Shown: positions 9,998 through 60,804 of the stretch, piece by piece
How the letters are laid out: each line of letters begins with the position of its first letter
How positions within the stretch are numbered: position 1 is the first letter of the stretch
NCBI GenBank assembly: GCA_964482435.1
Contig: CAYZXL010000010.1
Location: 36,946-100,945, forward strand
Reading direction: 5' to 3'
Source: an uncultured Verrucomicrobiota bacterium
GTDB lineage: Bacteria; Auribacterota; JABMQX01
Length of the DNA stretch: 64,000 nucleotides
The notes under the pieces: generated by a model
Databases searched by the model: none
Told to the model about the DNA's origin: nothing
The model's input: the letters and a program-made list of their open reading frames with translations, nothing else
Translations under genes and position numbers: made by a program

Positions 9998-9999
9998 TT

Positions 10000-10464
<465 letters not shown>

Positions 10465-10475
10465 TCACCTCCTGT

Positions 10476-20276: not shown

Positions 20277-21725
20277 ATGAAGCTGAGAGGTGGGTACAAC
20301 ATTTTGCTGAAGGGAAAGCCAGGCAGGGAGATGGAGTCGCTTCCTGAACCGCGCATGCTTTACTTGCCACTCAGAAGCAAGCGGTTCAACTTCTCGGAAA
20401 ACTGCGTGAGAGACGGAGAATGGGTAATCGCCGGTCAGGTCCTTGCGAGGGACCCGGCGAACCACTTGCTGCCACTGCTGGCGCCGAGGGCGGGGACAGC
20501 TCGGCTCGGGGCTGTCGCAGAGCATCTCATCCTGGAAGACATCGGCATGGCGCCGGAGGAACCGCGCCCTTCGGACGCGGAAGCCCCGCATGTTTCAACG
20601 GAGGTGCGGTCTGCCGACGAGAAGCGAGGCCAACTCCTGGAGCTTGGGGCGTGGCAGTTCGTGTGCGATGCGCAGACCGGTGAGCTGCCCGACCCATTTG
20701 GGACGCCGCGCGCAGTTATTGTCTCAAGTGTTCGGCTTGAGCCTTTTGTCGCCAGAGGGGACGTGCAGCTCTATGAGCAACTCCCGATTTTCGTTAGGGG
20801 GCTGGAGCATCTGCAGTCTCTCCTGGAGTATCAGCCGATGTATCTCGTTATGCCGGACACTGAGTCGGCGTTTGCCAGGCACGTGCGGGAGATGCTTCGC
20901 GGGTATGCATGGATAAAGCTGGTGGAGGTCCCGCTGCGCTATCCTTACGACGATTTCACGATTCTGGCGCGGGGTCTGGGATTGATGAAGGAGTCCGCAC
21001 CCAAAAAGGACGCTCAAAGCTCGTCCCCCATGGAGCCTTCGGTCAGCGGACCGAACGGGCCGGTGTGGGCGCTGCGGACGGAAGGGGCTCTGGCGATAGA
21101 CCGTGCGCTGACGCATTCTCTGCCATGCACGAGCAGAGTTGTTTCAGTCGGCGGGCCAGCGGTTGAGTCACCAACCCACATTAAGGCAATCCCCGGCTAT
21201 CCTCTCAAGGCGATCCTTGGTTCGCGTTTGTCCACGGGACGAGTCAGGGTGGTCAACGGCGGAGCGCTCACGGGCGAGATCATCGGGGAAGAGCAGCTTG
21301 GGCTGGACGTCGAGTGCTCCGGGCTAACGGTTCTTCCGGACGAGACCGAGAGGGAATTTTTAGGATTCGCGCGCCCGGGGTGGAGTCGGCGGTCGTATAG
21401 CCGGTGCTTTCCCGGTTCGCTCCGGCGGCCATTCGCCGAGCGTCTCACGACGGGGCTGCGTGGTGAACGACGAGCATGCATCTCGTGCAATTTCTGCGAA
21501 GAAGTGTGCCCGGCTGGCATTATGCCCCACCTGATTCACAAGTACCTTTATCAGGGCGCGCTCGAGGAGGCAGAGAGGGCGCGCGTGGACCTGTGCGTCG
21601 AATGCGGGCTGTGTTCGCTTGTGTGCCCGTCGAAGATCGAGCTTGTCAAGCAATTCTCTGAGGCGAAGGAGAGGATTCGGCGAGAGCTGGAGGAGGTCGC
21701 GGCGGGCCGGGAGGCGGAGAGATGA
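20277..21725 (+). CDS. nqrA: NqrA/RnfC-family subunit with a C-terminal 2x[4Fe-4S] ferredoxin motif
   Basis: It is the first gene of the six-gene operon. The C-terminus contains CISCNFCEEVCP and CVECGLCSLVCP (two CxxCxxCxxxCP motifs). No RnfC-type GGAGFP NADH-binding motif was seen. Confidence 0.7.
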   Translation: MKLRGGYNILLKGKPGREMESLPEPRMLYLPLRSKRFNFSENCVRDGEWVIAGQVLARDPANHLLPLLAPRAGTARLGAVAEHLILEDIGMAPEEPRPSDAEAPHVSTEVRSADEKRGQLLELGAWQFVCDAQTGELPDPFGTPRAVIVSSVRLEPFVARGDVQLYEQLPIFVRGLEHLQSLLEYQPMYLVMPDTESAFARHVREMLRGYAWIKLVEVPLRYPYDDFTILARGLGLMKESAPKKDAQSSSPMEPSVSGPNGPVWALRTEGALAIDRALTHSLPCTSRVVSVGGPAVESPTHIKAIPGYPLKAILGSRLSTGRVRVVNGGALTGEIIGEEQLGLDVECSGLTVLPDETEREFLGFARPGWSRRSYSRCFPGSLRRPFAERLTTGLRGERRACISCNFCEEVCPAGIMPHLIHKYLYQGALEEAERARVDLCVECGLCSLVCPSKIELVKQFSEAKERIRRELEEVAAGREAER

Positions 21726-37608: not shown

Positions 37609-38262
37609 CTGCGGCACCTCCCCACCTCTGAGGTCAATGCCAGGGCACCTCAATGGGTTGGACATGTTCTTAACAGGCTTCCTGAGGCGATGTCAAGAAA
37701 TGTCGTCGGAAGGGGAAGCCTACGTTTGAGTGGTGCATCTTGTGTCTTTGAGGGCGCCAATGCGGCGACGGATTCGAACTGATGAATCAGAAATCGCCTG
37801 CCCCCGGGTGGGTCTGCGTTGAGCCGGTTCTTCATCCAGGGAGTGTCTGACCTTTGCGCGCCGAACTCTCTCGGGCAACAACGTCTTTCCCTCGGAGGAC
37901 CGTACTCCTAAGGGCGGCGGCTGCAAAAACAACGCCACGCTACTCGTGCCGGCGCCGAGCACGATTGCGGGTCTCGCGCGCGGACGGGCGGCGCGGGTCC
38001 GGCTTTTCCTGTAAAGCGATATGGGCCGTCGAACTGTTTCGACCGAGGGGTTCCCGCTGCGTCTTTCTGCGGCGCCTCGACCAAAACGGGGTTGACTTTT
38101 GTTCCCTGGGTGGCCGAATATGCCGCCGGAACCTATTCCGATGCCAGGGACGTTGGTTCAGCTGAGCGCGAGTTCCTCCGCGCGGTCGCCGGTTGGTGGC
38201 GAGCAAGCGTGGCTGGTTTTTCTGCTGAACCTGAAAAGAAGGGGGCAGACGAGAGCGATTCA

Positions 38263-38550
38263 ATGGCGACCTGTGATCGAAACAACTCAACACTCGGACG
38301 AATTCTCCTGAAAGCGCTAAGCTCAGTGAAGCTCGCCGTCAGTCTTCTATCGCTCATAGCTCTGGTTCTGATCGTCGCAACCTTAATCAGAAATCAGGAC
38401 CACGCCCGGCGGTACATCTACCACTCCTGGTGGTTCATTTCCCTGCTTGGCCTCTTGTGTCTCAAGCTTCTTGTGTGCGTAGCGGGGCGACGGTCTCTTA
38501 AACTGAAAAAGCTGGGGACAAGGGTGACCCGAGCCGCTGGCAGAGGTTAA
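38263..38550 (+). CDS. stand-alone ResB N-terminal fragment (first TM helix plus YHSWWF motif)
   Basis: The 96-aa ORF LGRILLKALSSVKLAVSLLSLIALVLIVATLIRNQ...YIYHSWWFISLLGLLCLKLLVC reproduces the canonical ResB/Ccs1 N-terminus. It ends 2 bp before the next gene, which contains a diverged second copy of the same segment. Confidence 0.5.
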   Translation: MATCDRNNSTLGRILLKALSSVKLAVSLLSLIALVLIVATLIRNQDHARRYIYHSWWFISLLGLLCLKLLVCVAGRRSLKLKKLGTRVTRAAGRG

Positions 38551-38551
38551 G

Positions 38552-41500
38552 ATGCCCGAGGAGCAACAAAAAGGACGGCAGAAACGCGCAGCTCAGAGGG
38601 AGGCATGGGGTATGGCGGCCCCAAGGTTTTCCAAAGGCGAGGCAGTTCGGTTCGGATGGAAGACGGCGAAGCGCAATGTGGGGTTTTTTGCGGGCCTCAC
38701 TATCTTAGTCGGGATCACCCACGTTACTCCCTGGCTTATCACGGCTGCGGCCCGACAGGATGCGGGGCTTCTCCCTCGTATTGTCAGCGTCGCTTCATGG
38801 CTACCACAAATCGTGGTGCAGATGGGGGTCATGAGAATCGCCTTAAGATTCTGCGACGGCGCGAGGGGCGCACTTAGCGATTTATTCTCCTGTTTTCCTC
38901 TGTACTTCAGATATGTACTTGGTTCGAATCTATACGCGCTGATATGTTTCGGGGTGCCGTTCTGGGCATATCTACTTAGTCCGATTCTACTCGTGGCGGC
39001 GCTTTTGTTATTTGCCATCCCCGGCATTATCTGGTCAATGAAATACCAGTTCTTTGGGTATTTCATCGTTGACAGGGGAGTCCCTGCCGTGAAAGCACTT
39101 CGCGCAAGCGCGAGGATCACCAGGGGCGCTAAGCGGGAGTTGTTCGAGTTCGCTATATTGCTCGTCCTTATCAACATTCTCGGGGCCCTGTGCCTGGGCA
39201 TCGGTCTCTTTGTGACGGTCCCGCTATCGCTGCTTGCTCATGCCTTCGTGTATCGAAAGTTGCTGGCGGCTACGGAAGGTGTTCGAACAGCAGAGACCCT
39301 TGAGGCCGTTCGACCCCGTGAATCAGTACTAAGAGTGCTCGGCTCGGTGCAGCTAACCGTCACGCTCTCGTTTCTCGTAGCCGTGGCGCTGATGGTTGCA
39401 ACCCTCATCGAGAATCAGGCTCAGGCTGGTCGCAATATTTACCATTCCTGGTGGTTTATTTCGCTGCTCGGGCTTTTCTGTCTCAATCTTCTTCTCTGCA
39501 CGGCAGGGCGATGGTCCTTCAGAGCGAAGAAGATCGGGATAACTGTTGCCCACGCAGGCGTCCTGGTCATGGTCGTCGGAGTGGTCATCGGCGCCATCTG
39601 GGGGCAGCGAGGCTCCGTTCAACTCTACATCGGCCAGGCGGACGATATTTGGTACCTCGAAAATAACAAGAAGATGAAGCTCCCCTTCGTCGTTTATCTC
39701 AAATACTTTAAGGTGCAACGCTATGTTCGTGAAAGGCTTGTGGTTTACGTGGTGGACCGCAACCTCGTCCGCTCTTTCCCGATGGAAGTCGGCAAGAGCT
39801 TCAGGGTTGCCGGGACGCCGTATTCCGTGACGACCCTGCGCTACGAGCCAGACTTCGTTGTTCTCGGCAAAGGGGGTTTCGGGAGCCGCTCCAGCGAGCC
39901 AAAAAATCCAGCAGTCCAGGTTCGCGTCGAGGACGGGTCAGACAACAAGACACTGTGGGTCTTCGCAAAAGCCCCCGGCATGCACCAGGACCCGGATTCC
40001 AACGTCCGCCTCCTTTATCAGCGGGTCGAAGAAAGGATCAAGAATTTCAAATCAAAGGTCCTGCTCCTGGGCGAGAAGGTCGTCCTTGTCGTGGATGACA
40101 GGCCCGTGGAGACGGGGTACTGGGGGCTCAGTCACCCTGTTTTCAGTCCGGATGGCAGGCACGTCGCATACAAGGGTTCGGGTACAGACGGCGCATGGGA
40201 GTGCGTAGTAGTGGACGGACAGCCCGGACCGAGATACGAAGCGCTTGGCCCCAGGCCTCCCGTGTTTCATGGGGACGGTACCCTGGAATATCTGGCCTTC
40301 GGAGACGGGGTGGTCTACCGCGTTAAACACATCCCGCAAGCTAAGAGCCCGCCGGAAAAGAGGTCTCCACCCGTCGGCAAGGAAACTGGCACCGGACGCC
40401 GCAGCATTTTTGAGGAACGTACTACTCCGCCCGTCACCTCCTCGCAAAGAACAGCGCCCCTCGCTAGCAAAACAACCCCTACCCGCCGGTCGAGCCTCTT
40501 CCATGACGAGCCCACTTCCGGCCGCACCGTTGCCGTCGCACAGGCCGCGTACCAGGTCGAGGAGGAGAAGGTCGGGACAATTGACCGCTCGGCATTTGAC
40601 CACGCCAAGTTCAGCGGGGATGGATTGCACATCGCCTACCGGGTGGACAAGGATGGTAGGTGGATGGTCGCATTGGATGGGAAGGCAGGCCCCGACTTCC
40701 AATGTGCCGGACTCTCGGGGGAGTATTTCTGTGAGCGGCTTTTAGCCCTCAGTTCGGACGCAAAGCGGTTGGCGTACGCCGCCGTGGAGGCTGGCAAGAC
40801 ATTCGTGGTTATGGACGGCAGGCCGGGACCCGCGTATGACGACGTTCAGGACGTCACCCTCAGCGCGGATGGAAGGCGTGTCGCATATGTCGCCAAGAGG
40901 GGCAACAAGTCGTTCGTGGTCGTTGATGAGCAAGCCGGCCCAGAGCTCGACGAGATTAGAGACCCGGCCTTCAGTCCCGACGGGGCGCGATTTGCCTACA
41001 AGGGCAGAGTGCTGGGCGAGCAGACATACGTACTCGCCGTGGACGGCAGACCAAGGCCTGAGCTGGGCGCTGTTTCTGATTTTGTCTTCAGCCCCGACGG
41101 AAAACGAATGGCGTATGTGGCCGAGAAAAATTCCAACCGGTTTGTGGTACTCGATGGACAAGGCGGTCCGGAGTTCAGCAACATCGAGGATTTGATGTTT
41201 AGCGCGGACGGCAAGCGCTTCGCGTACGTCGGTGAGCGTGTAAGTAAAGGTGCGAGAGAAACGATCCTGGTTGTGGATGGGACTTTGATACGGGGCGTCG
41301 GCGTTTACCCCCGGCAAACCTTCAGCGCGGATGGTAAGCGCCTGGCCTACGCAGCCCCCAGCGGCGACGGGTGTCGTGTCATGCTGGACGGCAAGCCGGG
41401 CCCTGTGTATTTTGACGTGCTGGACCTCACTTTCAGTCCTGACGGGAGGCGACTCGCGTACTGCGCCAGAGAGATCCTCGCCTCCAAGACGATTGAAGTC

Positions 41501-41737
41501 AACAAGCCCTTGAGATACCAGGGCTTTTCGATGTATCAATCAGCCTACGATGAGCAGCGCGAAATGTTTTCCGTTCTTGGCATAGTCAAAGACCCCGGCC
41601 TCCCTCTCGTCTATATCGGGTTCGCGGTGATTTCGGCAGGAGTCCTCTTCAACTTCTATCTGCGCCCCATCTTGACGGGGAAAGCACGGGGAACAGCGAC
41701 CCAGAAGGCGCACGCCAGCGGAAGAAACACTGACTGA
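38552..41737 (+). CDS. resB: ResB/CcsB-like cytochrome c biogenesis protein with an N-terminal DUF975-like membrane domain and a PD40-type beta-propeller periplasmic domain
   Basis: Residues 1 to about 265 form a four-TM domain with FGWKTAKRNVGFF. Around residues 280 to 330 is a ResB N-motif (IYHSWWFISLLGLFCLNLLLC). Residues from about 530 to 970 carry at least eight FSPDG[KR]R[FLMV]AY repeats, and the ResB C-terminal region reads MYQSAYDEQREMFSVLGIVKDPGLPLVYIGFAVISAGVLFNFYL. Confidence 0.65.
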   Translation: MPEEQQKGRQKRAAQREAWGMAAPRFSKGEAVRFGWKTAKRNVGFFAGLTILVGITHVTPWLITAAARQDAGLLPRIVSVASWLPQIVVQMGVMRIALRFCDGARGALSDLFSCFPLYFRYVLGSNLYALICFGVPFWAYLLSPILLVAALLLFAIPGIIWSMKYQFFGYFIVDRGVPAVKALRASARITRGAKRELFEFAILLVLINILGALCLGIGLFVTVPLSLLAHAFVYRKLLAATEGVRTAETLEAVRPRESVLRVLGSVQLTVTLSFLVAVALMVATLIENQAQAGRNIYHSWWFISLLGLFCLNLLLCTAGRWSFRAKKIGITVAHAGVLVMVVGVVIGAIWGQRGSVQLYIGQADDIWYLENNKKMKLPFVVYLKYFKVQRYVRERLVVYVVDRNLVRSFPMEVGKSFRVAGTPYSVTTLRYEPDFVVLGKGGFGSRSSEPKNPAVQVRVEDGSDNKTLWVFAKAPGMHQDPDSNVRLLYQRVEERIKNFKSKVLLLGEKVVLVVDDRPVETGYWGLSHPVFSPDGRHVAYKGSGTDGAWECVVVDGQPGPRYEALGPRPPVFHGDGTLEYLAFGDGVVYRVKHIPQAKSPPEKRSPPVGKETGTGRRSIFEERTTPPVTSSQRTAPLASKTTPTRRSSLFHDEPTSGRTVAVAQAAYQVEEEKVGTIDRSAFDHAKFSGDGLHIAYRVDKDGRWMVALDGKAGPDFQCAGLSGEYFCERLLALSSDAKRLAYAAVEAGKTFVVMDGRPGPAYDDVQDVTLSADGRRVAYVAKRGNKSFVVVDEQAGPELDEIRDPAFSPDGARFAYKGRVLGEQTYVLAVDGRPRPELGAVSDFVFSPDGKRMAYVAEKNSNRFVVLDGQGGPEFSNIEDLMFSADGKRFAYVGERVSKGARETILVVDGTLIRGVGVYPRQTFSADGKRLAYAAPSGDGCRVMLDGKPGPVYFDVLDLTFSPDGRRLAYCAREILASKTIEVNKPLRYQGFSMYQSAYDEQREMFSVLGIVKDPGLPLVYIGFAVISAGVLFNFYLRPILTGKARGTATQKAHASGRNTD

Positions 41738-41747
41738 AAAGGGAGCC

Positions 41748-42740
41748 ATGTCACCCACAAGATTATTCTTCACCTGTGCCGAAGTAGCCTATTTCTTAGC
41801 GGGTGTGACTTTCGTAATTTACTACCTGAGCCGCAAGAGTGGCTTTCGGGTCGTTGCGATTTCTCTTCTGGTCGTCGGCGCGCTGTCCCAGGCCCTTTTC
41901 GTCGCCTGGCGATGGGGGGAAGCAGGACGCCCCCCGTTCGCCAATACGTTTGAAACGCTCGTGTTCTTCAGCCTGGTCATCGCGGTAGTCTGCATTGTCC
42001 TGGAGCTGCTTTATTCACCGAAGATTGTCGGGGCGGGCGGCGCGCTCCTCGCCCTCTTAGCCGTCGGGTACGCGAACCTGTTTGAGTGGCAAATCGAGCC
42101 CCTTATGCCCGCCCTGCAAAACAACTTCTGGTTGACCCTCCACGTCGTCTTCTGCTTCATCAGCTACGGCTCTTTCGCGGTATCTTTCGTGGCGGCTCTC
42201 ATTTTCCTTGTGATGCACGGCGGCGTCTTGCGAAAGATTTCGGCGTTTCTGGTATCTCTTTGCGTCGTGGGGCTTGTCGGTGGCCTGTTCTACGGGTTGG
42301 CGCTGCTGGGAATGGGTATCGCAGCCGCCGTGGCCGGAGGAGTTGTCGTGGCGGGGTTGATCTCACTCGCCCTGACATCCATTCTGACAAAGAAAGGAGT
42401 CACGGCCGAAGGAAGAACCAGCGTTCTCTCGGACCTGGTATGGAAGATGGTCGCGTTCGGCTTTCCGTTTCTCACTCTCGGAATCATGACTGGCTCGGTC
42501 TGGGCGAGCGTCGCTTGGGGGAGGTACTGGGGATGGGACCCGAAGGAAACGTGGTCGCTGATTACCTGGCTCGTTTACGCATTTTTCCTTCACGTGCGAT
42601 TCTCCGGCGGGCTGTTCGGCCTGAAGGCAAAATCGCTCCCGCAACTCCAGGCGATTCTCTCGGCGATTGGTTTCCTCTTCGTCCTTTTCACCTACTTCGG
42701 GGTCAACTACCTCCTGTCCGGCCTCCACGCCTACACATAA
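41748..42740 (+). CDS. ccsA: cytochrome c-type biogenesis protein CcsA/ResC (heme-handling WWD protein)
   Basis: The protein has the Trp-rich WWD motif WGRYWGWDPKETWSLITW and eight predicted TM helices. Confidence 0.85.
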   Translation: MSPTRLFFTCAEVAYFLAGVTFVIYYLSRKSGFRVVAISLLVVGALSQALFVAWRWGEAGRPPFANTFETLVFFSLVIAVVCIVLELLYSPKIVGAGGALLALLAVGYANLFEWQIEPLMPALQNNFWLTLHVVFCFISYGSFAVSFVAALIFLVMHGGVLRKISAFLVSLCVVGLVGGLFYGLALLGMGIAAAVAGGVVVAGLISLALTSILTKKGVTAEGRTSVLSDLVWKMVAFGFPFLTLGIMTGSVWASVAWGRYWGWDPKETWSLITWLVYAFFLHVRFSGGLFGLKAKSLPQLQAILSAIGFLFVLFTYFGVNYLLSGLHAYT

Positions 42741-43510: not shown

Positions 43511-44857
43511 ATGACTTTTGACGGCGTTTCACGGAAATTCTGGAGTTTGTGTGCAGGCGCTTCTCTCCTGATGAGCGCCTGTGCGATGGCAGGCGAAGTC
43601 GAGTCTCGGAAGGGCGCCCCTTTGTCTCTCTCCATCCAGGATAGTGTCAAGATTGCCGTGCGGAACAATCCCGTCGTGCAGATTGCGAGGGAAGAGCAAA
43701 GCGTCGCCCGTGGGAAGCTAACCGAAGCCAGGTCAGCAACCCTGCCTCACTTGGCGGCTTCGGGAACATATACATGGCTGGAGAGAGTCCCCAGCGCCAC
43801 ATTCATGGAGAGAACTTTCACGCTGGGCGAACAGGGACAGTACCTCACGTCGCTCGACCTTTCCCAGACCCTGTTCAGCGGCGGGCGCATCTCCGCTGGC
43901 ATACGGGGTGCAAAGTTCTACCGCGCCCTTGCCGAAGAGCAGCTCCGCGGGACGCAGCAGACTATCGCCTTCAGTGCCGAGAAAGCCTACTACGATGTCC
44001 TGGTCAATGCGGAATTCTATGCCGTCAGCCAGCACGCCCTCGAGCTTGCAGAAGGGCACAAAGCCGATGTGGAGAAAAGGCACGCGCAGGGGACAGTTTC
44101 GGACTACGACCTCCTTCGGGCGACCATCGAAGTCTCCAACATGCGTGCCCAGATGATCAAAGCCCGAAATGCCCTGAATCTCACGCAGACGACCTTTCTG
44201 AAAGTGCTGGCCTTACCTCTGACGACGGAATTTCTTTTGACCGACAAGCTTTCATACGAGCGAGCGACGGCGAAAATGGAGGAGAGCCTGGCAGTGGCTT
44301 TGCTCCAGCGGTCGGACTTGAAACAGGCCGACATCAAAGTAGCCATGCAGAAGGAAACCATTCGCGCCACGGCGGGAGCATTGTATCCGACGCTGGCTGC
44401 CGTCGGAACCTGGGAAGGAGGCAACGCAAGCCGGTTCTCATTTGGCGGCACGGGGTGGAGTGAGGGCTGGTACGTCGGCGCCATGGTCTCTGTCCCGGTT
44501 TTTGAGGGGATGGAAACGAAGGGAAAGTTGGCTCAAGAAAGAGCAAGGCTTCGCCAAAACGAGCTTCAAAAACAGGATTCTCTTCAGTCGGTTGAGCTGG
44601 AAGTCAAACAAGCCATCCTGAACCTCGAGGACGCCACAGAGTTTGTGGAATCCCAGAAAGAAAATGTCAGGCAGGCGGAGGAAGGCCTGCGCCTGGCCAA
44701 TGTACGCTACGCCAATGACATGGCGACGGAACTGGACGTGCTGGATGCGAGGGTCGCGCTGACTCAGGCCCGGAACAACTACGCGCAGGCGGTTTACAGC
44801 CATATGCTTGCCCGGTTATCCCTGAAGAAAGCTATGGGAGTCATTCCCCTGCCGTAG
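43511..44857 (+). CDS. TolC-like outer membrane efflux protein (OMF)
   Basis: The 448-aa protein has a signal peptide and two repeated alpha/beta-barrel halves with a TolC-like coiled-coil pattern. It lies upstream of MFP and RND genes. Confidence 0.75.
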   Translation: MTFDGVSRKFWSLCAGASLLMSACAMAGEVESRKGAPLSLSIQDSVKIAVRNNPVVQIAREEQSVARGKLTEARSATLPHLAASGTYTWLERVPSATFMERTFTLGEQGQYLTSLDLSQTLFSGGRISAGIRGAKFYRALAEEQLRGTQQTIAFSAEKAYYDVLVNAEFYAVSQHALELAEGHKADVEKRHAQGTVSDYDLLRATIEVSNMRAQMIKARNALNLTQTTFLKVLALPLTTEFLLTDKLSYERATAKMEESLAVALLQRSDLKQADIKVAMQKETIRATAGALYPTLAAVGTWEGGNASRFSFGGTGWSEGWYVGAMVSVPVFEGMETKGKLAQERARLRQNELQKQDSLQSVELEVKQAILNLEDATEFVESQKENVRQAEEGLRLANVRYANDMATELDVLDARVALTQARNNYAQAVYSHMLARLSLKKAMGVIPLP

Positions 44858-44876
44858 GCAACGAAAGGACACAGGA

Positions 44877-46094
44877 GTGCGCAAGGGCAAAATCGTGATC
44901 CTGTTGATTGTGGCCGCCCTGGCAGCGGGAACAGGCTACCGTGTGTACCGCCTTATCACTGCGAAGGAGAAACAGCCCGAGTCCTCTGATTCCGCGGCGG
45001 TGGCCGTTAAGGTTACGCCCGTGGAGGTGGGCACGATTCGACGGGACATTCGACTGACGGGTGATGTTCAGGCGGAGACAAGCGTGCAGGTCTTCCCGAA
45101 ATGCCCTGGTCGTTTGCTGGAGCCAACGGAGAAGCACCTGGAAAAGGCCCGTGCTCTATACAAGGAGGGGGCGATCTCCGAGGAGCCTGTCGCCAAAATC
45201 GAAGAAGTGGATGAGGGATACGTCGTTGCGAAGGGCCAGGTCATTGCCGTTATTGACCACGAGAACCCGGAGGCGCAGGTTAACCAGGCGAGGGCAGCGC
45301 TGACCACCGCCGACGCTCAGCTCAATCAGGCGGATGTTGCGCTCACGCAGACGGAAAAGGACCTCGAAAGAACTCGCAACCTGGAAAAGGAGGGTGCGGC
45401 TTCGAAGCAGGCTCTCGAGAAAATTGAGGCGGAATATAAGAGTCTCGTCCAGCAGAAGAACGTTGCCGAAGCGAGGGTCACCCAAAGCCGCGCTGCCTTC
45501 AACCAGGCCCAGATTCTGTTGGCGGAGTGTTTCATCACGGCGCCCATTTCCGGGATCATCTCTCAGAGATTCCTCGAGACGGGAGATATGGCGATGGTAA
45601 CGCGCCCGATCTTCGCCATCGTAGATGTGGACAAGGTTGAGGTAACCGCCGACCTTCCTGAAAGGAACCTCAACGACGTTCGAGAAGGGGCAGAGGTTTC
45701 GATGGGGGTGGACGCCTTTCCCGGGCGTGTGTTCAAGGGCATTATCACCAAAATCAGCCCGACGTTAAACGTTGTGAACCGCACCGCGAAATTGGAGATC
45801 ACAGTTCCGAATTCGGACCATGCCCTCAAGCCCGGGATGTTTGCTCGGGTGACCATGAATATTGCAGAAAGAAAGGGAGTCCCGGTTATCCCCGAGGCGG
45901 CGGTTCTCGGAGACGAATCCGGCAGGTATGTTTTCGTCGTTGGGAGCGGTGTTGCCCACCGCCGCAATGTGACCCTTGGCCTGGAAGAAGGGCCCACGGT
46001 CGAGGTGGCCGAGGGACTCCAACCCGGAGAAATGCTGGTAACCGCAGGCCATCAGAAGCTATTAGAAGGACAGTCTGTGCAAGTGGAGAAATAA
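44877..46094 (+). CDS. efflux RND transporter periplasmic adaptor (membrane fusion protein)
   Basis: The protein has an N-terminal TM anchor, a coiled-coil hairpin and beta-barrel domains of the HlyD/AcrA family, with a GTG start. Confidence 0.8.
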   Translation: MRKGKIVILLIVAALAAGTGYRVYRLITAKEKQPESSDSAAVAVKVTPVEVGTIRRDIRLTGDVQAETSVQVFPKCPGRLLEPTEKHLEKARALYKEGAISEEPVAKIEEVDEGYVVAKGQVIAVIDHENPEAQVNQARAALTTADAQLNQADVALTQTEKDLERTRNLEKEGAASKQALEKIEAEYKSLVQQKNVAEARVTQSRAAFNQAQILLAECFITAPISGIISQRFLETGDMAMVTRPIFAIVDVDKVEVTADLPERNLNDVREGAEVSMGVDAFPGRVFKGIITKISPTLNVVNRTAKLEITVPNSDHALKPGMFARVTMNIAERKGVPVIPEAAVLGDESGRYVFVVGSGVAHRRNVTLGLEEGPTVEVAEGLQPGEMLVTAGHQKLLEGQSVQVEK

Positions 46095-46176
46095 GGGGTG
46101 AGACAAGGCGGCTCTCGCGCGAATGCCTGAGCGCTCAGTGCCCGTCGTTACCCGAAAATCGGGAGTGTAGTTTGCC

Positions 46177-49100
46177 ATGAGCCTTCCTCGTTTTTGCGTC
46201 GGGCATCCCGTAACAACCCTGATGATTTTCTTTGGGGTTATCCTCATAAGCATCATCTCACTCCTTCGCCTTCCCGTGGACATGTTTCCGGAGATGACCA
46301 TCCCGTCCCTCAGTGTGATTACCCAGTATCCGGGGGCCAGTGCGGAGGACGTCGAGACGCAGGTGACGGAGCCGCTCGAAGACCGTCTCACGACGATCCC
46401 CGACCTCAAGCACATCCTCTCCACGTCCAAACAGGACCTATCTGTGATTACACTGAGCTTTGAGTGGGGAACGGACCTCGACACGCGAGCTAACGACGTC
46501 AGGGATGCCATCGGTTTCGCGGAGGTGGTCTTGCCCGACGACGCGGAAAAGCCCCTCGTCCTCAAATTTGACGTGTCCAACTTCCCCGTCATGGGTTACG
46601 GCATTACCGCCAGGGAAAGCTACCCTGACCTGAAGGAGACCGTCGAGAATGAGGTTGCTGACCCCCTCAAGCGGATTCCGGGTGTCGGCGCGGTCATGAT
46701 TCGAGGAGCACCGCGTCGTCAGGTCAACATTGACCTCGACCGCCAGCTCCTCGCGACTCATCATCTTACCCCTCAGGATGTCGTCCGTGCCATCTACAGC
46801 GAAAACCAGACCAATCCGGCCGGCAATCTCAAAGTTGGGGTCAAGGACTACTCCATTCGCGTGCCCGGTGAGTTCAAACAAGTCGAGCCGATGAAGCGAA
46901 TCGTCGTCTCCAACCAGGGAGGAAAGATTGTCCGCCTGGAGGATGTCGCTACTACGGTAGAGTATGCCTTCGCAGAGGAATTACAGCCTGTCCGAATTGA
47001 TGGTCAAAAGGGTCTTGTCCTCATGGTCCTCAGGCAATCTGGCGCCAATACGGTCAAGGTTGCCAGAGCGGTCCAGAAACAGGTAAAGGTCCTCGCCAAG
47101 CGCCTCCCGGAGGACGCCAAAGTCATTAGCGTCTGGGACGGTTCCGAAGACATTACTCGGATGATTAACGACCTCGTGACGACATTGTGGCAAGGGGGGC
47201 TGTTGACCGTCCTCGTTATCCTCATCTTTCTGCGGCAAGTCCGTGCGACGTTCATCATCGCGCTGTCCATTCCGTTTTCTCTGATCTCGACTCTGATTCT
47301 CACGTACGTCCTCGGCTACACGATTAACATGATCTCTCTCTTTGGCCTCGTCGTCGCCGTCGGAATGGTCGTGGACAACTCCATTGTCATCCTCGAGAAC
47401 ATCTCTCGGCATCGGGAGGAGGGAGAGAGCAAGAAAGAAGGCGCGCTCTACGGGGCGGGGGAGGTGGCACTGGCCGTCGCAGCGTCCACGTACACCACCG
47501 TCGTGGTTTTCCTCCCCCTGATCTTCGTCAAAGGGGTCATCAAGATTCTGTTTACACAGTTTGGAGTCGTTTTCTGCGCGACCATTCTCAGTTCCCTCTT
47601 CATCGCCGTTACTCTTACTCCGATGCTCTCCTCGAAGATACTGCCAGGGGCCTGGGACGAGACTCGGTCCAAGGGGCTTTTCCGCAGGCTTTATCAATGG
47701 TCCGGGCGGCTTCTCGACCCTATCTTTGTCGGGTACGATAAAGCGCTCGCATGGGCCTTGAACCATCGCAAGACCGTGATTGCCTTAGCGGTCGCCATCT
47801 TCGGCGGGAGCCTCTTCCTGATGCCATTCATCGGCAGCGAATTCACCCCCGATCAGGACCAGGGCTCTCTCCAGGGAACCCTTTACCTCCCTGTCGGAAC
47901 GAGGGTCGAGGAAACCGATCGGATCATGGCGGAAATCGAGGAGATTATGAAACGGGAGGTTCCCCCGGAAGAATTGTTGGTCACTTATGTTCGCTGCGGT
48001 CAGAGCGAGGAGGGGATATCAAGCATCTTTGGAGACGAAGGTCCCCACATTGGCGAATTTGGGGTGAAGCTCGTTCCGAAGACCCAGCGCAAAGAGGGCT
48101 TCAAGGAGATCGCCGAAAGGCTTCGAAAGAGAATTGCCCAGATTCCGGAGATAGAGAAATTCCGTGTTGAGACCCAGGACCCAATGGCCGGACTTCTACT
48201 CGGACAGGAGCGGCCCGTTACCGTCAACGTCTTCGGCAGAGACATGGAAAAGACCGATGCTTTCGCCGCGGAAGTCGAGAAAATCTTTCAGTCCGTGCGC
48301 GGAACAACCGACGTGGAAATCTCCCGGGTCAAAGGAAAGCCGGAGCTATGGGTGCAGATTGACCGCGACAAGGCTTCCTCGATGGGGTTGAATGTCTCAA
48401 CGATTTCTGACACGGTTCGTGCCGCGTTCTACGGCCGCGAGGCATCCAAATACAGAATCGGCGGCAACCAATACGACATCTTCGTTCGCCTCGACGACAA
48501 AAACCGCCTGACGCCCGACGATGTCCGGGAAATGGACATTCGCCTGCCGACCGGCGAGACCACGCAAGTCGCCAACCTCGCCGAGGTTGTCCCCCACCTC
48601 GGCCCCGTGACCATCGAACGAAAGGACCGCGACCGCATTGTTAACGTTGGCTCCGGCGTTGGCAAGCGGTCCATGGGCGAGATTGTGACGGATGTCAAGA
48701 AAAAAGTCGAGCGTCTTCCGCGAACGCCAGGGGTGGAGTGGCAGATGGCGGGTCAAGCAGAGGAGCAGAAGGAATCCTTCTTCTGGCTGAGGATTGCCAT
48801 TCTCATTGGCGTCATTCTCGTTTACATGGTCATGGCGGCTCAGTTCGAGTCGTTACTCCATCCTTTCGTAGTCATGTTCTCGGTTCCGTTCGCTTTCACG
48901 GGAGTCATCTGGGCTATGTTCCTCGGCGGATTTCATCTTAGTATCGTCGTTTTCATAGGGGTGCTGCTGCTCATCGGCATCGTCGTGAACAATGCTATCG
49001 TCCTGGTTGACTATACGAACATTCTCCGGGCGCGCGGCCTTGGAATCAAGGAGGCCGCCTTCCGGGCGGGAAGGACCCGGCTGCGGCCCGTTCTCATGAC

Positions 49101-49284
49101 CGCGATCACCACGATCGTAGGGCTGCTCCCGATGACTTTCGCCAAGGGACAAGGCTCGGAGTTCTGGAACCCGCTCGGCGCGACGATCCTCAGCGGGCTT
49201 TTGGTCTCGACGTTAGTTACGCTTATCGTCGTCCCAACCTTCTACACGATTTTTGAACGGAAGGGACGCTTCCAGAGGAGGTAA
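46177..49284 (+). CDS. RND family efflux permease (AcrB/CzcA superfamily)
   Basis: The 1035-aa protein has twelve TM helices and two large periplasmic loops, plus conserved RND motifs in TM4 and TM10. Confidence 0.85.
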   Translation: MSLPRFCVGHPVTTLMIFFGVILISIISLLRLPVDMFPEMTIPSLSVITQYPGASAEDVETQVTEPLEDRLTTIPDLKHILSTSKQDLSVITLSFEWGTDLDTRANDVRDAIGFAEVVLPDDAEKPLVLKFDVSNFPVMGYGITARESYPDLKETVENEVADPLKRIPGVGAVMIRGAPRRQVNIDLDRQLLATHHLTPQDVVRAIYSENQTNPAGNLKVGVKDYSIRVPGEFKQVEPMKRIVVSNQGGKIVRLEDVATTVEYAFAEELQPVRIDGQKGLVLMVLRQSGANTVKVARAVQKQVKVLAKRLPEDAKVISVWDGSEDITRMINDLVTTLWQGGLLTVLVILIFLRQVRATFIIALSIPFSLISTLILTYVLGYTINMISLFGLVVAVGMVVDNSIVILENISRHREEGESKKEGALYGAGEVALAVAASTYTTVVVFLPLIFVKGVIKILFTQFGVVFCATILSSLFIAVTLTPMLSSKILPGAWDETRSKGLFRRLYQWSGRLLDPIFVGYDKALAWALNHRKTVIALAVAIFGGSLFLMPFIGSEFTPDQDQGSLQGTLYLPVGTRVEETDRIMAEIEEIMKREVPPEELLVTYVRCGQSEEGISSIFGDEGPHIGEFGVKLVPKTQRKEGFKEIAERLRKRIAQIPEIEKFRVETQDPMAGLLLGQERPVTVNVFGRDMEKTDAFAAEVEKIFQSVRGTTDVEISRVKGKPELWVQIDRDKASSMGLNVSTISDTVRAAFYGREASKYRIGGNQYDIFVRLDDKNRLTPDDVREMDIRLPTGETTQVANLAEVVPHLGPVTIERKDRDRIVNVGSGVGKRSMGEIVTDVKKKVERLPRTPGVEWQMAGQAEEQKESFFWLRIAILIGVILVYMVMAAQFESLLHPFVVMFSVPFAFTGVIWAMFLGGFHLSIVVFIGVLLLIGIVVNNAIVLVDYTNILRARGLGIKEAAFRAGRTRLRPVLMTAITTIVGLLPMTFAKGQGSEFWNPLGATILSGLLVSTLVTLIVVPTFYTIFERKGRFQRR

Positions 49285-49298
49285 AAGGCAATTCCAGC

Positions 49299-49592
49299 AT
49301 GAAAATGGTCCTGATCGTTTACAGTCAGGCCCTCGATGACGAGGTGTTGACGGCAGTGAAGGATTGCGGCTTGCAGAACTACACAAAGTGGACGGGGGTC
49401 CTCGGAAAAGGGACCGCAAGCGGGCCGCACCTCGCCACGACGGTTTGGCCGAGGTCCAATAACGTTCTTGCACTGGTTACTGATGATAGTTTCGTCGAGC
49501 CGCTTCTCGAACGGATAACAAAGCTGAGAGCCGAGCTTCGCGGCGAAGGCGTTAAGGCTTTCGTCCTGCCGGTTGAGAGCTTCACGGAATAG
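49299..49592 (+). CDS. small PII-like fold protein trailing the RND pump (DUF3240-like)
   Basis: The 97-aa ORF starts 15 bp after the RND gene stop. Its beta-alpha-beta-beta-alpha-beta pattern resembles PII-like proteins often linked to cation-efflux pumps. Confidence 0.35.
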   Translation: MKMVLIVYSQALDDEVLTAVKDCGLQNYTKWTGVLGKGTASGPHLATTVWPRSNNVLALVTDDSFVEPLLERITKLRAELRGEGVKAFVLPVESFTE

Positions 49593-49764
49593 CGCCGCCC
49601 GGAATCTTCTCCCCATCGCACGTCGCTTCCCGTCACAGACACGCACAGGGGGCGCAGGTGAATTGTCTATTGAAGGGGGAACCTCCGCCTCGTATGATGC
49701 TGTTTACGACGCAAGAGAGATTGCCCGAGCTGTTCGCTGAGCATTTCTATACGAAAGGGTTGCT

Positions 49765-52851: not shown

Positions 52852-55575
52852 TCAGTCCTGGCAGACGCGGTAGAAGCGGCATTTGACGGCGGCAGCGGGA
52901 GGGGAGGTTGGATTATTTTTCTCGTCGGGAGAGTCGAGCCATTGGATGATGCTGCCGTCTCCGAGGAAAGCCGGGCCGCAGGGTTTCCAGTCGGTGGTTT
53001 CATTGAGACCGTCGTCGGTGTACTCAATCTGGTAGCGGACACCTTGAATCGTTGGTCCGAAGGCGACGGCGATTGAGGAGGTGCTGACGGTGATGGTGAG
53101 TTGCAGTGGCGGAAACGGCTCCTCCTCGCGGAGCAGAAGCGTGAGGTCATCCCAGGCGGCGTTCGCGGGAGAGCTGAACACGTCGCGGGCGAGCATCCAG
53201 AACCGGACGGATTTTGTGCCAGCAGGGACGCGATTGCTGGAGGACAATTTCATCCACTCGCCGATTACCCCGGAGTAAAGTTGCCGTCGTTCGAGAACGG
53301 TGTTGCTGGCATCGAGAAATTCAATTGCTATCAAAGGGACAACGGACTCCGTCTGGCCTGTTCGGATGACATGGCCTCCCCAATCGGCGACAATCTTTTT
53401 TTGCGGCGAATCAATCGCTTCTGAAAAAGCCGAAACGTCCACGTCCTGATAAGCTCCGAGGAGGTAGGTCTCGTTCACCAGGTTGTTTGTTTCGCGGTCG
53501 AATCTCCCCGAGGTCTGGTCTGCCCAGAAAGCCCACTTCCCCTGGACGCTCCAGCCGTCAGCGACGGCAATGAACAGGTCGTTGTCGAAGGAGTAGCGGT
53601 TGGCGGGGTCGGGTGGGAAAGTAGTGCTGGCGTTGGTCCAGTGGCAGAGGGATTGTTCTTCGGCATCGGAGTTGAGGAGAAGGTTGCGTGTTTGATCGCC
53701 CGCAGCGCCGGCGACGGTTTCGGACGGCAGCCCTTCGAGATCGGCGTCCACTGCTGTTACGTAATACGAACAACTGGTCCCTTCGACCAGGTTGAGGTCG
53801 AGGTAACGTGGTTGTGGCACCCGAGAAGGGGTGATTTTGACGAAGGGTGCATCGCCTACCTTCCTGTAAATCAAATAGCCGAGGACATCGGCTTCGGGAT
53901 TGGGTTCCCAGGCGAGGGCGATTCCTCCGAGGGTCGGCTCGGCGGAAAGACCGAAGACCTTTTTCGGGGGGATGCCGGCAGGGGCGGTGGTCTGGACTTC
54001 GGGCGACGGGTCGCTCTCTACGGGACCATATCCAGGAGCGAAGGAGCGGACCATGTAGGTGTACGTCTTGCCTTCTGCGGTGGATTCGTCAGTCCAAGAG
54101 GTCGCGGCGACGTCGGCGACTTTCTCGAAAGGCTCGGAGCCGGTTCGGCGGTAGATGTTGTAGCCGGCTGGCAAGACTCCTCCGGACGGGGGATCCCAGG
54201 AGAGCGCGATGCTTTGCTCGCCGGGAGAAACGGAAGCTGAGAGATTCGACGGCGGGTCCGGCTTGGGGACGAAATTCCATTGATATACGACAACCTCCCC
54301 GGACTTCAGAGAGATGTAGAAGCGGTTGCGGTAGCCCTTGATTGACTGAATTTGCTCTCCGTCTCCGATGCTCACGCTAAAGAGCACCTGCGGTTCGCTC
54401 GTCTTATCGGCGAGGTCGAGCACGAGAAGCTCGTCTCCCCCTACCTCGGCAGTGACGAGGTGCGTCTCATCGTGGGTCAAAACGGACGGAAGGAGCGGAT
54501 TGGACGAGATGCGGCTTCCCGGCTCATCGCCGTTCCCGTTCCAGTTGATGGGCGAGCCGAGGAACTCAGGAGCCGCACCGTCGGTGGGCATGTCGGCATT
54601 CCAGAGTAAATAGGAGCCGTCAGCGGCCACGACTTGCCGGATGCGAACAAACCAGTGGTCCGCTGGATGCATGGACGCGACCCGCTCGATCAACCACTTC
54701 CCATCGCCGGTTATGATGTCGGGCGAGACTCGCGAACGCCAGTCGCCCGAGCAGCGCGACCAGTACCGAAACGCCTCAATGGGGTCTCGCGAAAAATCCA
54801 GCATCGCTTCCGCTCCGTCCTGCCCTCCGCACCAGAGCAAATCGCGGCTCGGGTCGTAAACCTGCCCGTAAATCGTCGAGAACCCCCCGATGCCTTCCTT
54901 CACGACGGACATCTTCCGGGTGACGGAGTTGATCGAAAGCAAGTAGATTCCCTCGCCGAAAAAGACTTTGTGGCCGCCAGAGGGGTCATCGGCGTGCCCG
55001 CCGGTTCTCATGGCAGCGGCGATCATTGAGCCGCCCTTGACGAAAATGGGAGGGGATGTGGTCAAGGGATTCTCAAATTGAGCACCCGGAAATTGAAGAT
55101 TCGGGGGATAGGCAGAGTCGAGCAATTGGAATTGGTCACCGCTGACGTCAATCAGGAATATCTTTGTTCCGCAGCCGCCTCCGACGACAACTCTCTCAAA
55201 ACACGGGTCGAAAGAGATTCCGAAGGCGCCATCCTCGCCGTAAGGCATCCCTTCAAATTCCTGCTGGGCGAGGGAGCGGATTTGGGAGGGGTCTGTGACG
55301 TCGAGGATGTCGAGGCAGGCTGCCCCGCCAGGGGAGGACTCGCTCACAACGTAGAGGCGAGTGCCGTCGGCGTTGAGGGCGAGATTGTACGCACCTCCGG
55401 GCCCGGGGTCAAACTCGCCGCAGAAATCGAAACGCTCGACATTCAATCCTCCCGACGGAGTGTCAGATATGCCGGAGCTGGTGCGGGAGCGCGATTCTCC
55501 GGCAACGCGCCAAGCGCACGGGAACACGAGGAGACAACAAAGACACACAGCAAAACTGGATAGCCGTGGACGCAT
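52852..55575 (-). CDS. large secreted protein with a beta-propeller-like N-terminal region, two fibronectin type III domains and a C-terminal domain of unknown function
   Basis: The start at 55575 is followed by signal peptide MRPRLSSFAVCLCCLLVFPCAWRVAG. The two FN3 units are ...PPSNLSASVSPGEQSIALSWDPP...YTYMV... and ...PPKKVFGLSAEPTLGGIALAWEP...YYVTAVD... Confidence 0.5.
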   Translation of the reverse strand: MRPRLSSFAVCLCCLLVFPCAWRVAGESRSRTSSGISDTPSGGLNVERFDFCGEFDPGPGGAYNLALNADGTRLYVVSESSPGGAACLDILDVTDPSQIRSLAQQEFEGMPYGEDGAFGISFDPCFERVVVGGGCGTKIFLIDVSGDQFQLLDSAYPPNLQFPGAQFENPLTTSPPIFVKGGSMIAAAMRTGGHADDPSGGHKVFFGEGIYLLSINSVTRKMSVVKEGIGGFSTIYGQVYDPSRDLLWCGGQDGAEAMLDFSRDPIEAFRYWSRCSGDWRSRVSPDIITGDGKWLIERVASMHPADHWFVRIRQVVAADGSYLLWNADMPTDGAAPEFLGSPINWNGNGDEPGSRISSNPLLPSVLTHDETHLVTAEVGGDELLVLDLADKTSEPQVLFSVSIGDGEQIQSIKGYRNRFYISLKSGEVVVYQWNFVPKPDPPSNLSASVSPGEQSIALSWDPPSGGVLPAGYNIYRRTGSEPFEKVADVAATSWTDESTAEGKTYTYMVRSFAPGYGPVESDPSPEVQTTAPAGIPPKKVFGLSAEPTLGGIALAWEPNPEADVLGYLIYRKVGDAPFVKITPSRVPQPRYLDLNLVEGTSCSYYVTAVDADLEGLPSETVAGAAGDQTRNLLLNSDAEEQSLCHWTNASTTFPPDPANRYSFDNDLFIAVADGWSVQGKWAFWADQTSGRFDRETNNLVNETYLLGAYQDVDVSAFSEAIDSPQKKIVADWGGHVIRTGQTESVVPLIAIEFLDASNTVLERRQLYSGVIGEWMKLSSSNRVPAGTKSVRFWMLARDVFSSPANAAWDDLTLLLREEEPFPPLQLTITVSTSSIAVAFGPTIQGVRYQIEYTDDGLNETTDWKPCGPAFLGDGSIIQWLDSPDEKNNPTSPPAAAVKCRFYRVCQD

Positions 55576-55973
55576 GACACCCCCCCGGTGAGACTTCCAA
55601 GCCGCGACATTTCTCGAGTTATCGTATAGCAAATCGGAAAAAGCAAGTCAACAAACCCCGAAAGTTTTCAGGTAGTGCGTTAGTCCTCCGCGGCTATGGT
55701 CGTGTCGCCCGCGAGGAACAAAGCCTCTACCTCCGTAGTGCCTGTCCAATGCCGCTCGTCAAATCACGACAAGGCGATAATTCACCCCGGGCGCGCCCCC
55801 GAAATGCAGTCACGGCCCTTCAGCGTGAGTCATTGGTTCACGAAGAACCGACATCGGGGCGTACAGACGCTCATTGCCCTCACGGCCGCCACGCAATCCA
55901 GACAAAGCGCCGTTGGCACCTTATGAACCGAATTGCCGACGGGAAGGCTCAGCCCTGTCGGAGTCGCGCCTCC

Positions 55974-59658: not shown

Positions 59659-60804
59659 ATGAGCATGACGAAGGACACAGTGAGCAGAAGGCAATTCCTG
59701 AAGGACAGTTCGATGATCGGAGCGGCGATGGTTCTTGCGGCAGCCGGCGCTAAGCCGAGCGACGCGAAGGAACCGAAAGTGGACACGTCGAAAATCGTCA
59801 ACTACAACCCGAAGATGGGATACCGGCGCCTCGGAAAAACGAATTTGATGCTTTCGGAAGTGAGCCTCGGCGGGCACTGGAAAAATCGCGGCGGCGGACG
59901 ATACTGGGACAGGTTCGACCAGGATGAGTGCCCGGAGGACGTCGCAAGAAACCGGTCTGACATCGTCAGCAAGTGCATCGAGTGCGGCATCAACTATCTC
60001 GACATCACAACACGCGCGGAGTGCATCGCTTACGGGATGGCCCTGAGAGGGCGAAGAGACAAAATGATTGTCGGGGCGGACGACCATGTCCTGGGCCCGC
60101 GAAATCCTGCCAACCGCACGGTTGAGAAGCTTATTCTCGACGTCGAGGAATGCCTGAAAGCGTTCAAGACGGACTATTTTGACATCTGGCGAGTACAGGC
60201 GCAGATGAATCCCCCTCTTAACACTGACGCGGAAGTCGAGAACATGGTCGAAGCCTTCGAGCAACTCCACAAGCAGGGGAAAGCGAAGTGGTTTGGCGTT
60301 TCGTCCCACACGCGCTCATGGCATCAGCACATCATCGAAAAATATCCGCAAATCTCGATGATTATTTTCCCGTACACCGCCCAGTCAAAGGCCATTGACG
60401 GCAAGGAAACGATTGTCGAGCAGGGCGCCGACGAAGCCGACCCGGCGGTCAGGAGCATCTTCGAGGCGGTGAAGAAGCACGACGTCGGGGTCTGCACGAT
60501 CAAGCCGTTTGCGGGCGGCTCAGTCTTCAGCCCGCAGAAGTTCCCGGCTCCGGAGCAAGGGTCGGAGGAAGAGCACAAGCTAGCGCGATTGACTTTGCAG
60601 TACATCACCGCCAACGACGCAATCACCGCGACGCTGCCCGGCATGACGACGATGCGCGAAGTCGAGAACAACGTTCGGGCATCCTACGAGCGCGGCAAGG
60701 GCGTTTCCTGGGAGGATGTTCAGTGGCTCAAGCGAAGGACGGATGCGGCGTGGGCGAACCTTCCCGAGGAGTACGCATGGCTGCGCGAGTGGGAGTGGGT
60801 CTGA
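59659..60804 (+). CDS. TAT-exported (periplasmic) aldo/keto reductase family protein
   Basis: The twin-arginine signal is VSRRQFLKDSSMIGAAMVLAAAGA. The AKR core is paralogous to the 62015-63106 gene, with shared motifs LGKT.LM.S.V.LGGHWK and F.GFSSH.R. Confidence 0.7.
   Translation: MSMTKDTVSRRQFLKDSSMIGAAMVLAAAGAKPSDAKEPKVDTSKIVNYNPKMGYRRLGKTNLMLSEVSLGGHWKNRGGGRYWDRFDQDECPEDVARNRSDIVSKCIECGINYLDITTRAECIAYGMALRGRRDKMIVGADDHVLGPRNPANRTVEKLILDVEECLKAFKTDYFDIWRVQAQMNPPLNTDAEVENMVEAFEQLHKQGKAKWFGVSSHTRSWHQHIIEKYPQISMIIFPYTAQSKAIDGKETIVEQGADEADPAVRSIFEAVKKHDVGVCTIKPFAGGSVFSPQKFPAPEQGSEEEHKLARLTLQYITANDAITATLPGMTTMREVENNVRASYERGKGVSWEDVQWLKRRTDAAWANLPEEYAWLREWEWV

Follow-up and report, generated by a model that had tools for sequence, protein, structure and literature searches.

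A System II ResB/CcsB protein with an N-terminal DUF975-like membrane domain and a PD40-like propeller insert: a one-lineage chimera in an uncultured Verrucomicrobiota bacterium

Introduction

Can ResB (CcsB), the membrane protein that works together with CcsA in System II cytochrome c biogenesis, accept large additional domains, and does a gene with such an architecture encode a redesigned synthase component or an ordinary one that carries passengers? The question was raised by a stretch of 64,000 nucleotides from an uncultured Verrucomicrobiota bacterium (contig CAYZXL010000010.1, positions 36,946 to 100,945 of the forward strand; the window in what follows), where one long open reading frame (ORF) joins a DUF975-like membrane domain, a ResB core and a series of PD40-like repeats. 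A previous examination of the letters of this DNA, called here the sequence-only reading, had interpreted the product as a ResB rebuilt around a beta-propeller. We conclude that the chimeric gene is real and intact, and that its product is most likely (with a probability of about 0.6) a working CcsB with tolerated or mildly beneficial passenger add-ons. This was judged the likeliest reading since no second lineage with the architecture was found, a plain ResB serves the sister genome and the insert appears to be an arbitrary slice of another gene.

Results

Domain architecture of the chimeric ORF

The ORF at 38552..41737 of the plus strand is translated without a stop into 1061 amino acids. 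Its true start is probably the methionine at residue 21 (38612; 1041 aa), because both the onset of homology to the DUF975 relatives (M21, MAAPRFSKGEAVRFGW) and a GGGAGG Shine-Dalgarno sequence, 9 nt 5' of 38612, are found there. The following parts could be distinguished, with residues numbered from the first ATG (TM, transmembrane helix; pLDDT, predicted local distance difference test score):

38552..41737, plus strand: chimeric resB/ccsB ORF, 1061 aa from the ATG at 38552, 1041 aa from the likelier start at 38612
38612..39316, plus strand: DUF975-like polytopic membrane domain, residues 21-255, assigned by identity to the relatives P0002, P0003 and P0152
39317..40084, plus strand: N part of the ResB core, residues 256-511, with TM1, TM2 (YHSWWF), TM3 (H334), the start of the beta cap and the loop F386...Y391
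40085..40339, plus strand: insert part 1, residues 512-596, two blades ending in the C-terminal cap motif FHGDGTLEYLA...YRVK, pLDDT 79-91
40340..40591, plus strand: insert part 2, residues 597-680, a Ser/Thr/Pro/Arg-rich linker, predicted to be disordered, followed by the lead-in strand AYQVEEEKVG, pLDDT <45
40592..41470, plus strand: insert part 3, residues 681-973, eight blades of the pattern FSPDGxRxAY...VVDGxxGPxYD
41471..41737, plus strand: C part of the ResB core, residues 974-1061, with the returning beta-cap strand, EVNKP, DPG, TM4 and the cytoplasmic tail

Profile searches clearly identified two of the three components. The protein scored 75 bits with Pfam ResB (cut-off 24.6) and 76 bits with Pfam PD40 (cut-off 20.9), the latter rising to 87 bits when the insert was searched alone, so that the two family assignments of the sequence-only reading held well above their thresholds. 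Its third label, DUF975, stood only in part: the N-terminal domain itself reached 21.9-24.9 bits, below the cut-off of 34.8, whereas the relatives that are 45-58% identical to it pass with 35.0-39.7 bits, and membership of this family is therefore indirect, by way of sequence relatives. The motif FGWKTAKRNVGFF lies at residues 34-46. As had been described, the ResB N-terminal motif YHSWWF (residues 297-302) comes after the membrane domain, and the C-terminal ResB signature VKDPGLPLVYIGF is present at residues 1012-1024. A profile built from the 20 nearest ResB homologues splits the chimera in two, residues 255-511 corresponding to model positions 17-274 and residues 974-1053 to positions 273-352, and the same boundaries were obtained from alignment A2. 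Hydropathy and AlphaFold place the helices of the ResB core at residues 262-284, 298-318, 330-352 and 1017-1039, with a beta-rich domain in between.

Matches to named propeller proteins remained far below their NCBIfam cut-offs: TolB (TIGR02800) 25 against 343, TmcD (NF045725) 94 against 440, and lasso isopeptidase 37 against 400. TmcD as the identity of the protein was rejected, its score reflecting repeat similarity; judged by these scores, only the repeats are common to the chimera and to TolB, TmcD and the S9-type peptidases.

Integrity of the gene

The contig was assembled from a metagenome, and three otherwise unrelated families are joined in one ORF, as would be expected if unrelated genes had been fused by an assembly or binning error. 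However, four separately assembled sequencing runs contain the window DNA with 100% identity over 9-16 kb, through the flanks and through all domain junctions, and the same protein, called from M21 with 1041 aa, is present on a 119-kb NCBI contig. The source samples are ERR3804376 and ERR4334730/34/36. The frame passes through the three junctions and is open over 3.2 kb, and the GC content at third codon positions (GC3) is uniform over all parts. Since four assemblies agree to the last nucleotide, an assembly or frameshift artefact is very unlikely; we give this explanation hardly any weight, and the contiguous ORF assumed by the sequence-only reading is borne out. A foreign base composition of the parts was also considered and rejected on the GC3 values, from which it follows that the parts came from sources of similar composition or that the fusion did not take place very recently.

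Position of the insert in the ResB core

The ResB family profile matches the Helicobacter hepaticus CcsBA structure (PDB 7S9Y) with E values of about 1e-19 to 1e-20. In this alignment the segment LPF..L..FKVxRY falls on CcsBA residues 231-246, which form the beta-cap loop, with F386 and Y391 at the positions of Phe240 and Tyr245. In CcsBA this loop is described as standing directly over the external haem site, and the beta cap may govern the access of CXXCH to that site (PMC10663686). The segments KSKV.L...G.VV and ASKTIEVNKPL, one on either side of the insert, align to SYTSEVEVLDGQNPPLPFRIFMNN of 7S9Y (residues 253 onward), and the ResB C part as a whole matches residues 253-324. Because of this residue-level correspondence, the 462-aa insert (residues 512-973) is assigned to the turn of the beta-cap hairpin. 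In the same alignment H334 of TM3 lies at the His of LLLHASF, and EVNKP (residues 982-986) agrees with the VNxP motif defined for CcsB (PMC4222556).

The core has kept the features of its family. Of 127 columns with at least 90% conservation among the 20 homologues, 114 are retained, the homologues themselves reaching 87-100% in a leave-one-out comparison, and the mean identity of the periplasmic part to the family is 0.56 (homologues, 0.54-0.56). Accelerated evolution of the ResB core was rejected, since its identities to the family are typical.

Fold and origin of the propeller insert

Propeller repeats of the FSPDG type had been noticed in the sequence-only reading and were recovered here, and their count, given as at least eight, was revised: ten units are present, starting at residues 531, 572, 687, 733, 770, 807, 846, 883, 924 and 961, two of them before and eight after the Ser/Thr/Pro/Arg-rich linker. 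The insert was modelled alone by AlphaFold with 59 homologues, and the model had a mean pLDDT of 80 and a predicted template modelling score (pTM) of 0.76. Blade values were mostly 87-98, those of the two pre-linker blades 79-91, and the linker stayed below 45. Fold matches comprised the trilobed and tricorn protease propellers, S9 peptidase propellers, TolB and the ten-bladed sortilin, which gave the largest aligned length (349 residues). The structural check that the sequence-only reading had called for thus returned a confident model whose matches are propellers. The best of them have 9 or 10 blades, which indirectly suggests that the insert could form a single ring of about ten blades.

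The PD40-like repeat family to which the insert belongs has 2171 representatives at E <= 1e-30, the named ones coming from Planctomycetota, Armatimonadota and others. Typical members have 450-600 aa, about 12 repeats and a cap motif, F..DG.L.YLA...L.RV, some 25-45 residues from the C-terminus. In the chimera the corresponding motif FHGDGTLEYLA...YRVK (from residue 572) precedes the linker. The nearest relative of the insert, P0034 (1349 aa), is 40% identical over 513 columns, and residues 511-974 of the chimera are colinear with its residues 433-920, including the RRS.FE motifs of the linker and the AYQVEEEKVG lead-in. Since the cap motif stands before the linker and the colinearity with P0034 is continuous, the insert appears to have been cut from the interior of a tandem propeller gene and not to be a neatly excised domain: it would comprise two blades and the cap from the end of one unit, the linker between the units, and eight blades from the start of the following one.

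P0034 consists of two PD40-like units of about 12 blades each, the same type of Ser/Thr/Pro/Arg linker and a C-terminal glycine-cleavage H-protein (lipoyl carrier) domain. Such an architecture, as read from its domain matches, is unusual in its own right.

The N-terminal domain and membrane topology

The DUF975-like domain is 58% identical to P0002, 45% to P0003 and 51% to P0152. P0152 is a stand-alone protein of 221 aa, and P0002 and P0003 carry the domain as the N-terminal module of larger proteins. A four-helix domain of about 265 aa had been proposed for this part, which is not what we found: the domain measures about 235 aa and six helices fit best. With six helices (positive-inside count, hydropathy, AlphaFold helices) all Lys/Arg-rich loops fall on one side of the membrane. 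We infer from this model that both ends of the six-helix part lie in the cytoplasm and that the ResB orientation is kept: as the number of extra helices is even, the chain would be back in the cytoplasm before TM1 of ResB.

Another short-type ResB, P0015 (L022, 5001-6296), is extended at its N-terminus by about 80 aa that contain additional hydrophobic segments. The protein of the window may thus not be the only member of this short-type subfamily with membrane sequence added at the N-terminus.

The sister locus and the diverged tract

The 20 closest ResB homologues are 50-65% identical to the core, measure 337-431 aa and have neither a DUF975 nor a PD40 part. One of them, P0013, a plain ResB of 374 aa, is encoded in a locus (L005) whose synteny with the window is complete: both have, in this order, glycosyltransferases, a CapK-like gene, resB, ccsA, tetR, the gene of an outer-membrane factor and a resistance-nodulation-division (RND) pump. 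Comparison of the two loci gave the following values (dS, synonymous divergence; dN/dS, ratio of nonsynonymous to synonymous divergence):

Upstream flank: 96% identity
37704-38528 (intergenic region and first part of the stump described below): 92.6% identity
ResB core of the large ORF: about 70% identity
Up to about 41870 (first ~40 codons of ccsA): 61-87% identity
Beyond 41870: 91-100% identity, with a few diverged patches
Flanking genes: dS 0.05-0.11
ResB N part: dS 1.40, dN/dS 0.17
ResB C part: dS 0.82
ccsA: dS 0.23
~38444-41870, no strand assigned: diverged tract of about 3.4 kb between near-identical flanks, dS 0.8-1.4 inside and 0.05-0.11 in the flanks

The limits of the tract were taken from blastn, sliding-window identity and per-segment dS. 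Both of its ends fall in conserved coding sequence: the left one at the YHSWWF site of resB, the right one in the 5' end of ccsA. This pattern suggests that the tract was brought in by homologous recombination with a more distant, unsampled relative, and that the donor already carried the stump tail and the chimera. A native ResB C-terminus, with a crossover exactly at the end of the insert, was rejected because the dS of 0.82 and the identity profile extend the tract to about 41870.

A similar pattern is seen further downstream, in the efflux operon. At 43971-44270 and 44571-49594, stretches of 95-100% identity to L005 alternate with patches of 58-75%. Three genes are affected by the patches, that of the outer-membrane factor (at its 3' end) and those of the membrane-fusion protein and the RND pump, and identity returns to 95% from 49653. 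This alternation suggests repeated recombination of the operon with diverged relatives.

The upstream resB stump

Immediately 5' of the chimeric gene a remnant of the native resB was recognized, which the sequence-only reading had passed over:

38263..38550, plus strand: 5' remnant of the native resB, an ORF of 95 codons with ResB TM1 and TM2 and YHSWWF

Gene callers annotate it as a gene of 95 aa, with a faint ResB match. Its protein and residues 259-335 of the large ORF share 60% identity, and the two DNA copies only about 78%; on these values a recent tandem duplication was rejected as its source. The stump is composed of two segments that differ in their history. Compared with L005, codons 1-61 have a dS of 0.11 and keep 27 of 27 conserved columns, and codons 62-95 have a dS of 1.14 and keep 12 of 17. 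The five residues lost in the tail include the equivalents of W321 and H334 of the large ORF. Because conserved residues were lost from the stump tail and kept in the large ORF, it can be argued that the large ORF has been maintained and the stump has not.

The stump is preceded by a non-coding stretch of about 560 bp (37704-38262) that is conserved in the sister locus and is presumed to contain the resB-ccsA operon's promoter and leader. A promoter and terminator scan round the locus returned no sigma-70-like promoter on the plus strand in 37704-38262.

CcsA and the cytochrome context

The gene that follows the chimera encodes its expected partner:

41748..42740, plus strand: ccsA, WWD-motif subunit of the System II synthase, starting 10 nt after the chimeric gene

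Its product scores 221 bits with TIGR03144 (cut-off 187.6) and 129 bits with Pfam Cytochrom_C_asm, and carries the motif WASVAWGRYWGWDPKETW (WGRYWGWDPKE), in agreement with the canonical CcsA that had been named as the next gene. Multihaem cytochromes elsewhere in the window, likewise mentioned in the sequence-only reading, were also located: two plus-strand ORFs, 60833-61888 and 63223-63723, have four CxxCH motifs each. The tetrahaem proteins are likely clients of the System II machinery, judging from these motifs.

The second of the two ORFs (63223-63723) is weakly similar to the DmsE and GSU2203 decahaem families. The tetrahaem ORFs adjoin aldo/keto-reductase-like ORFs (59659-60804 and 62015-63106), one of which has a twin-arginine signal. 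At 6213-12425 (minus strand) and 20277-21725 (plus strand) the window encodes V-type ATPase subunits A and I and an NqrA/RnfC-like subunit, which gives an energy-metabolism context. An ORF of 926 aa at 52852-55632 (minus strand) had no NCBIfam match at E <= 1e-5.

Rarity of the architecture

The searches spanned 1.84 billion representatives and 5.8 billion clusters, and among the matches listed no second protein combining ResB with PD40 repeats was found; a distant ResB with another propeller family could escape such a search. The genome-contig scan yielded only distant ResB genes, the metagenome scan nothing close to the chimera or its donor, and the 64-kb window no further copy of any of the chimera's modules. 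The literature searched contained no paper tying PD40 or beta-propellers to ResB/CcsB, so the statement of the sequence-only reading that the architecture is undescribed agrees with our results. A redesign of ResB conserved across organisms is not supported: the architecture was found in one lineage, the sister has a ResB of 374 aa at the same locus, and the 20 nearest homologues are ResB only. Since it was found in a single lineage, the architecture is, as seen from these searches, a curiosity and not a new system. On present evidence the protein is a single natural case of a CcsB with one domain inserted and another fused, and no new biogenesis mechanism is indicated.

Discussion

In the chimera a nearly whole DUF975-type membrane protein precedes a short-type ResB in the same frame, and what looks like a 462-aa slice of a PD40-like tandem propeller gene interrupts the turn of the beta-cap hairpin, again in frame. 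Homologous recombination probably installed the tract of about 3.4 kb, leaving the 95-codon resB stump upstream. The ResB core, whose TM3 histidine and beta-cap loop are intact, and CcsA would form the System II haem channel and cytochrome c synthase, the ordinary job of CcsB being retained. The two additions stand at places where they should disturb the core least. The ends of a ring-shaped propeller lie side by side, and such a ring, inserted at the hairpin turn, would hang from it without breaking the cap. Any added function would be secondary, most plausibly protein binding beside the active site.

The location of the propeller invites the proposal, already made in the sequence-only reading, that it is an adaptive apocytochrome-handling device, by which unfolded apocytochromes, or one particular multihaem cytochrome, would be docked at the active site of CcsBA or threaded into it. 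The insert is placed in the hairpin of a cap that lies directly above the external haem site and may control the access of CXXCH (PMC10663686), its blades are well conserved and predicted to fold confidently, two otherwise near-invariant residues of the beta-cap loop are altered, and two tetrahaem cytochromes are encoded in the window. The predicted fold also resembles the tricorn, trilobed and S9 peptidase propellers. Tricorn and S9-type peptidase propellers gate unfolded substrates. Nevertheless, the sister genome copes with a plain ResB and the chimera is confined to one lineage, no special cytochrome co-occurs beside the gene, and the insert starts and ends in the middle of a unit of its donor family and contains a disordered linker of about 65-80 residues, so that it looks accidental. 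We therefore regard the device as unlikely. Its wider version, in which the propeller would feed unfolded (perhaps large multihaem) apocytochromes to CcsBA, the DUF975 part would couple the synthase to another membrane process and the same design would exist in the unsampled donor lineage, appears rather improbable to us.

The contrary possibility is that the chimera is non-functional or decaying, and that maturation depends on another resB-ccsA pair or on a Ccm system elsewhere in the genome. Two CcsA-CcsB sets do occur in some bacteria, for example in anammox genera (PMC4222556). The gene is a singleton assembled from gene fragments with a pseudogene-like stump alongside, and its TM1 and beta-cap loop depart from the family consensus. 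Yet a frame that is open over 3.2 kb and crosses three junctions is not what a dead gene would be expected to show, and 90% of the conserved ResB columns have been retained where the stump tail has lost its Trp and His. The gene changes at a rate usual for the family, it has an intact ccsA closely linked to it, and the insert is predicted to fold confidently. Decay thus seems a poor explanation of the locus, and quite improbable.

A working CcsB with passenger domains also has to face several observations that weigh against it. Thirteen conserved ResB columns are altered: five of them cluster in TM1, which has become an internal helix, and two, D385Y and E389Q, lie in the beta-cap loop; these changes could be adaptive or follow from a relaxed constraint. 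Most of the dN/dS signal may be older than the chimera. The DUF975 domain has a pLDDT of about 55 in the AlphaFold model, so the count of six helices is insecure. The recombination scenario is drawn from patterns of divergence, and the donor lineage was not found in the representatives, clusters, genome contigs and metagenome scan that were searched. Finally, a passenger domain is hard to distinguish from one that has a real function of another kind.

An active chimera would mean that a folded domain of more than 400 residues can be accommodated at the tip of the CcsB beta cap, and a membrane module of six helices at the N-terminus of CcsB. Both tolerances, if true, would be useful for the engineering and tagging of cytochrome c synthases and for probing the role of the beta cap. 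The locus would moreover be a clean natural example of a multi-domain membrane protein that arose by in-frame capture of gene fragments and was then moved by homologous recombination, with the stump and the unmodified sister locus available as controls.

Comparison with known systems

The closest likeness is to ResB/CcsB itself (Ccs1; 7S9Y/7S9Z). The chimera has TM1-TM3, the periplasmic beta cap and TM4, keeps the TM3 His, the Phe/Tyr of the beta-cap loop and the VNxP motif, and is followed directly by a WWD CcsA. It differs by the membrane domain of about 235 aa, with six predicted helices, before TM1 and by the 462-aa propeller insert in the beta-cap hairpin. The periplasmic length of CcsB is known to vary (PMC10663686). 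Longer ResB proteins such as P0004 have their extra periplasmic sequence near model positions 181 and 255, not at 273. At the other end of the size range, the second CcsB of anammox bacteria has 319-335 aa (PMC4222556), comparable to the short ResB proteins P0010-P0029.

The N-terminal domain resembles DUF975 (PF06161), with 45-58% identity over the whole domain up to the fusion point, the C-terminal linker included; it differs in being fused to ResB and in a Pfam score under the cut-off. To the PD40/TolB-like proteins (PF07676) the insert corresponds in repeat sequence, blade length (about 37-41 aa), cap motif and inter-unit linker. Those, however, are free-standing secreted proteins of about 12 blades, whereas the chimera holds a fragment of 2+8 blades inside a membrane protein.

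The CcsBA fusions of Helicobacter, Wolinella and Bacteroides are a precedent for System II genes tolerating fusion (PMC10663686). Their partners and positions are unlike those of the chimera, and the likeness is one of working mode and not of family membership. In System I, CcmI is an apocytochrome chaperone with a tetratricopeptide repeat (TPR) domain, and it illustrates that a repeat domain on a haem-ligation complex can bind apocytochrome. By this analogy, the resemblance to CcmI concerns a possible working mode of the chimera, not its family membership.

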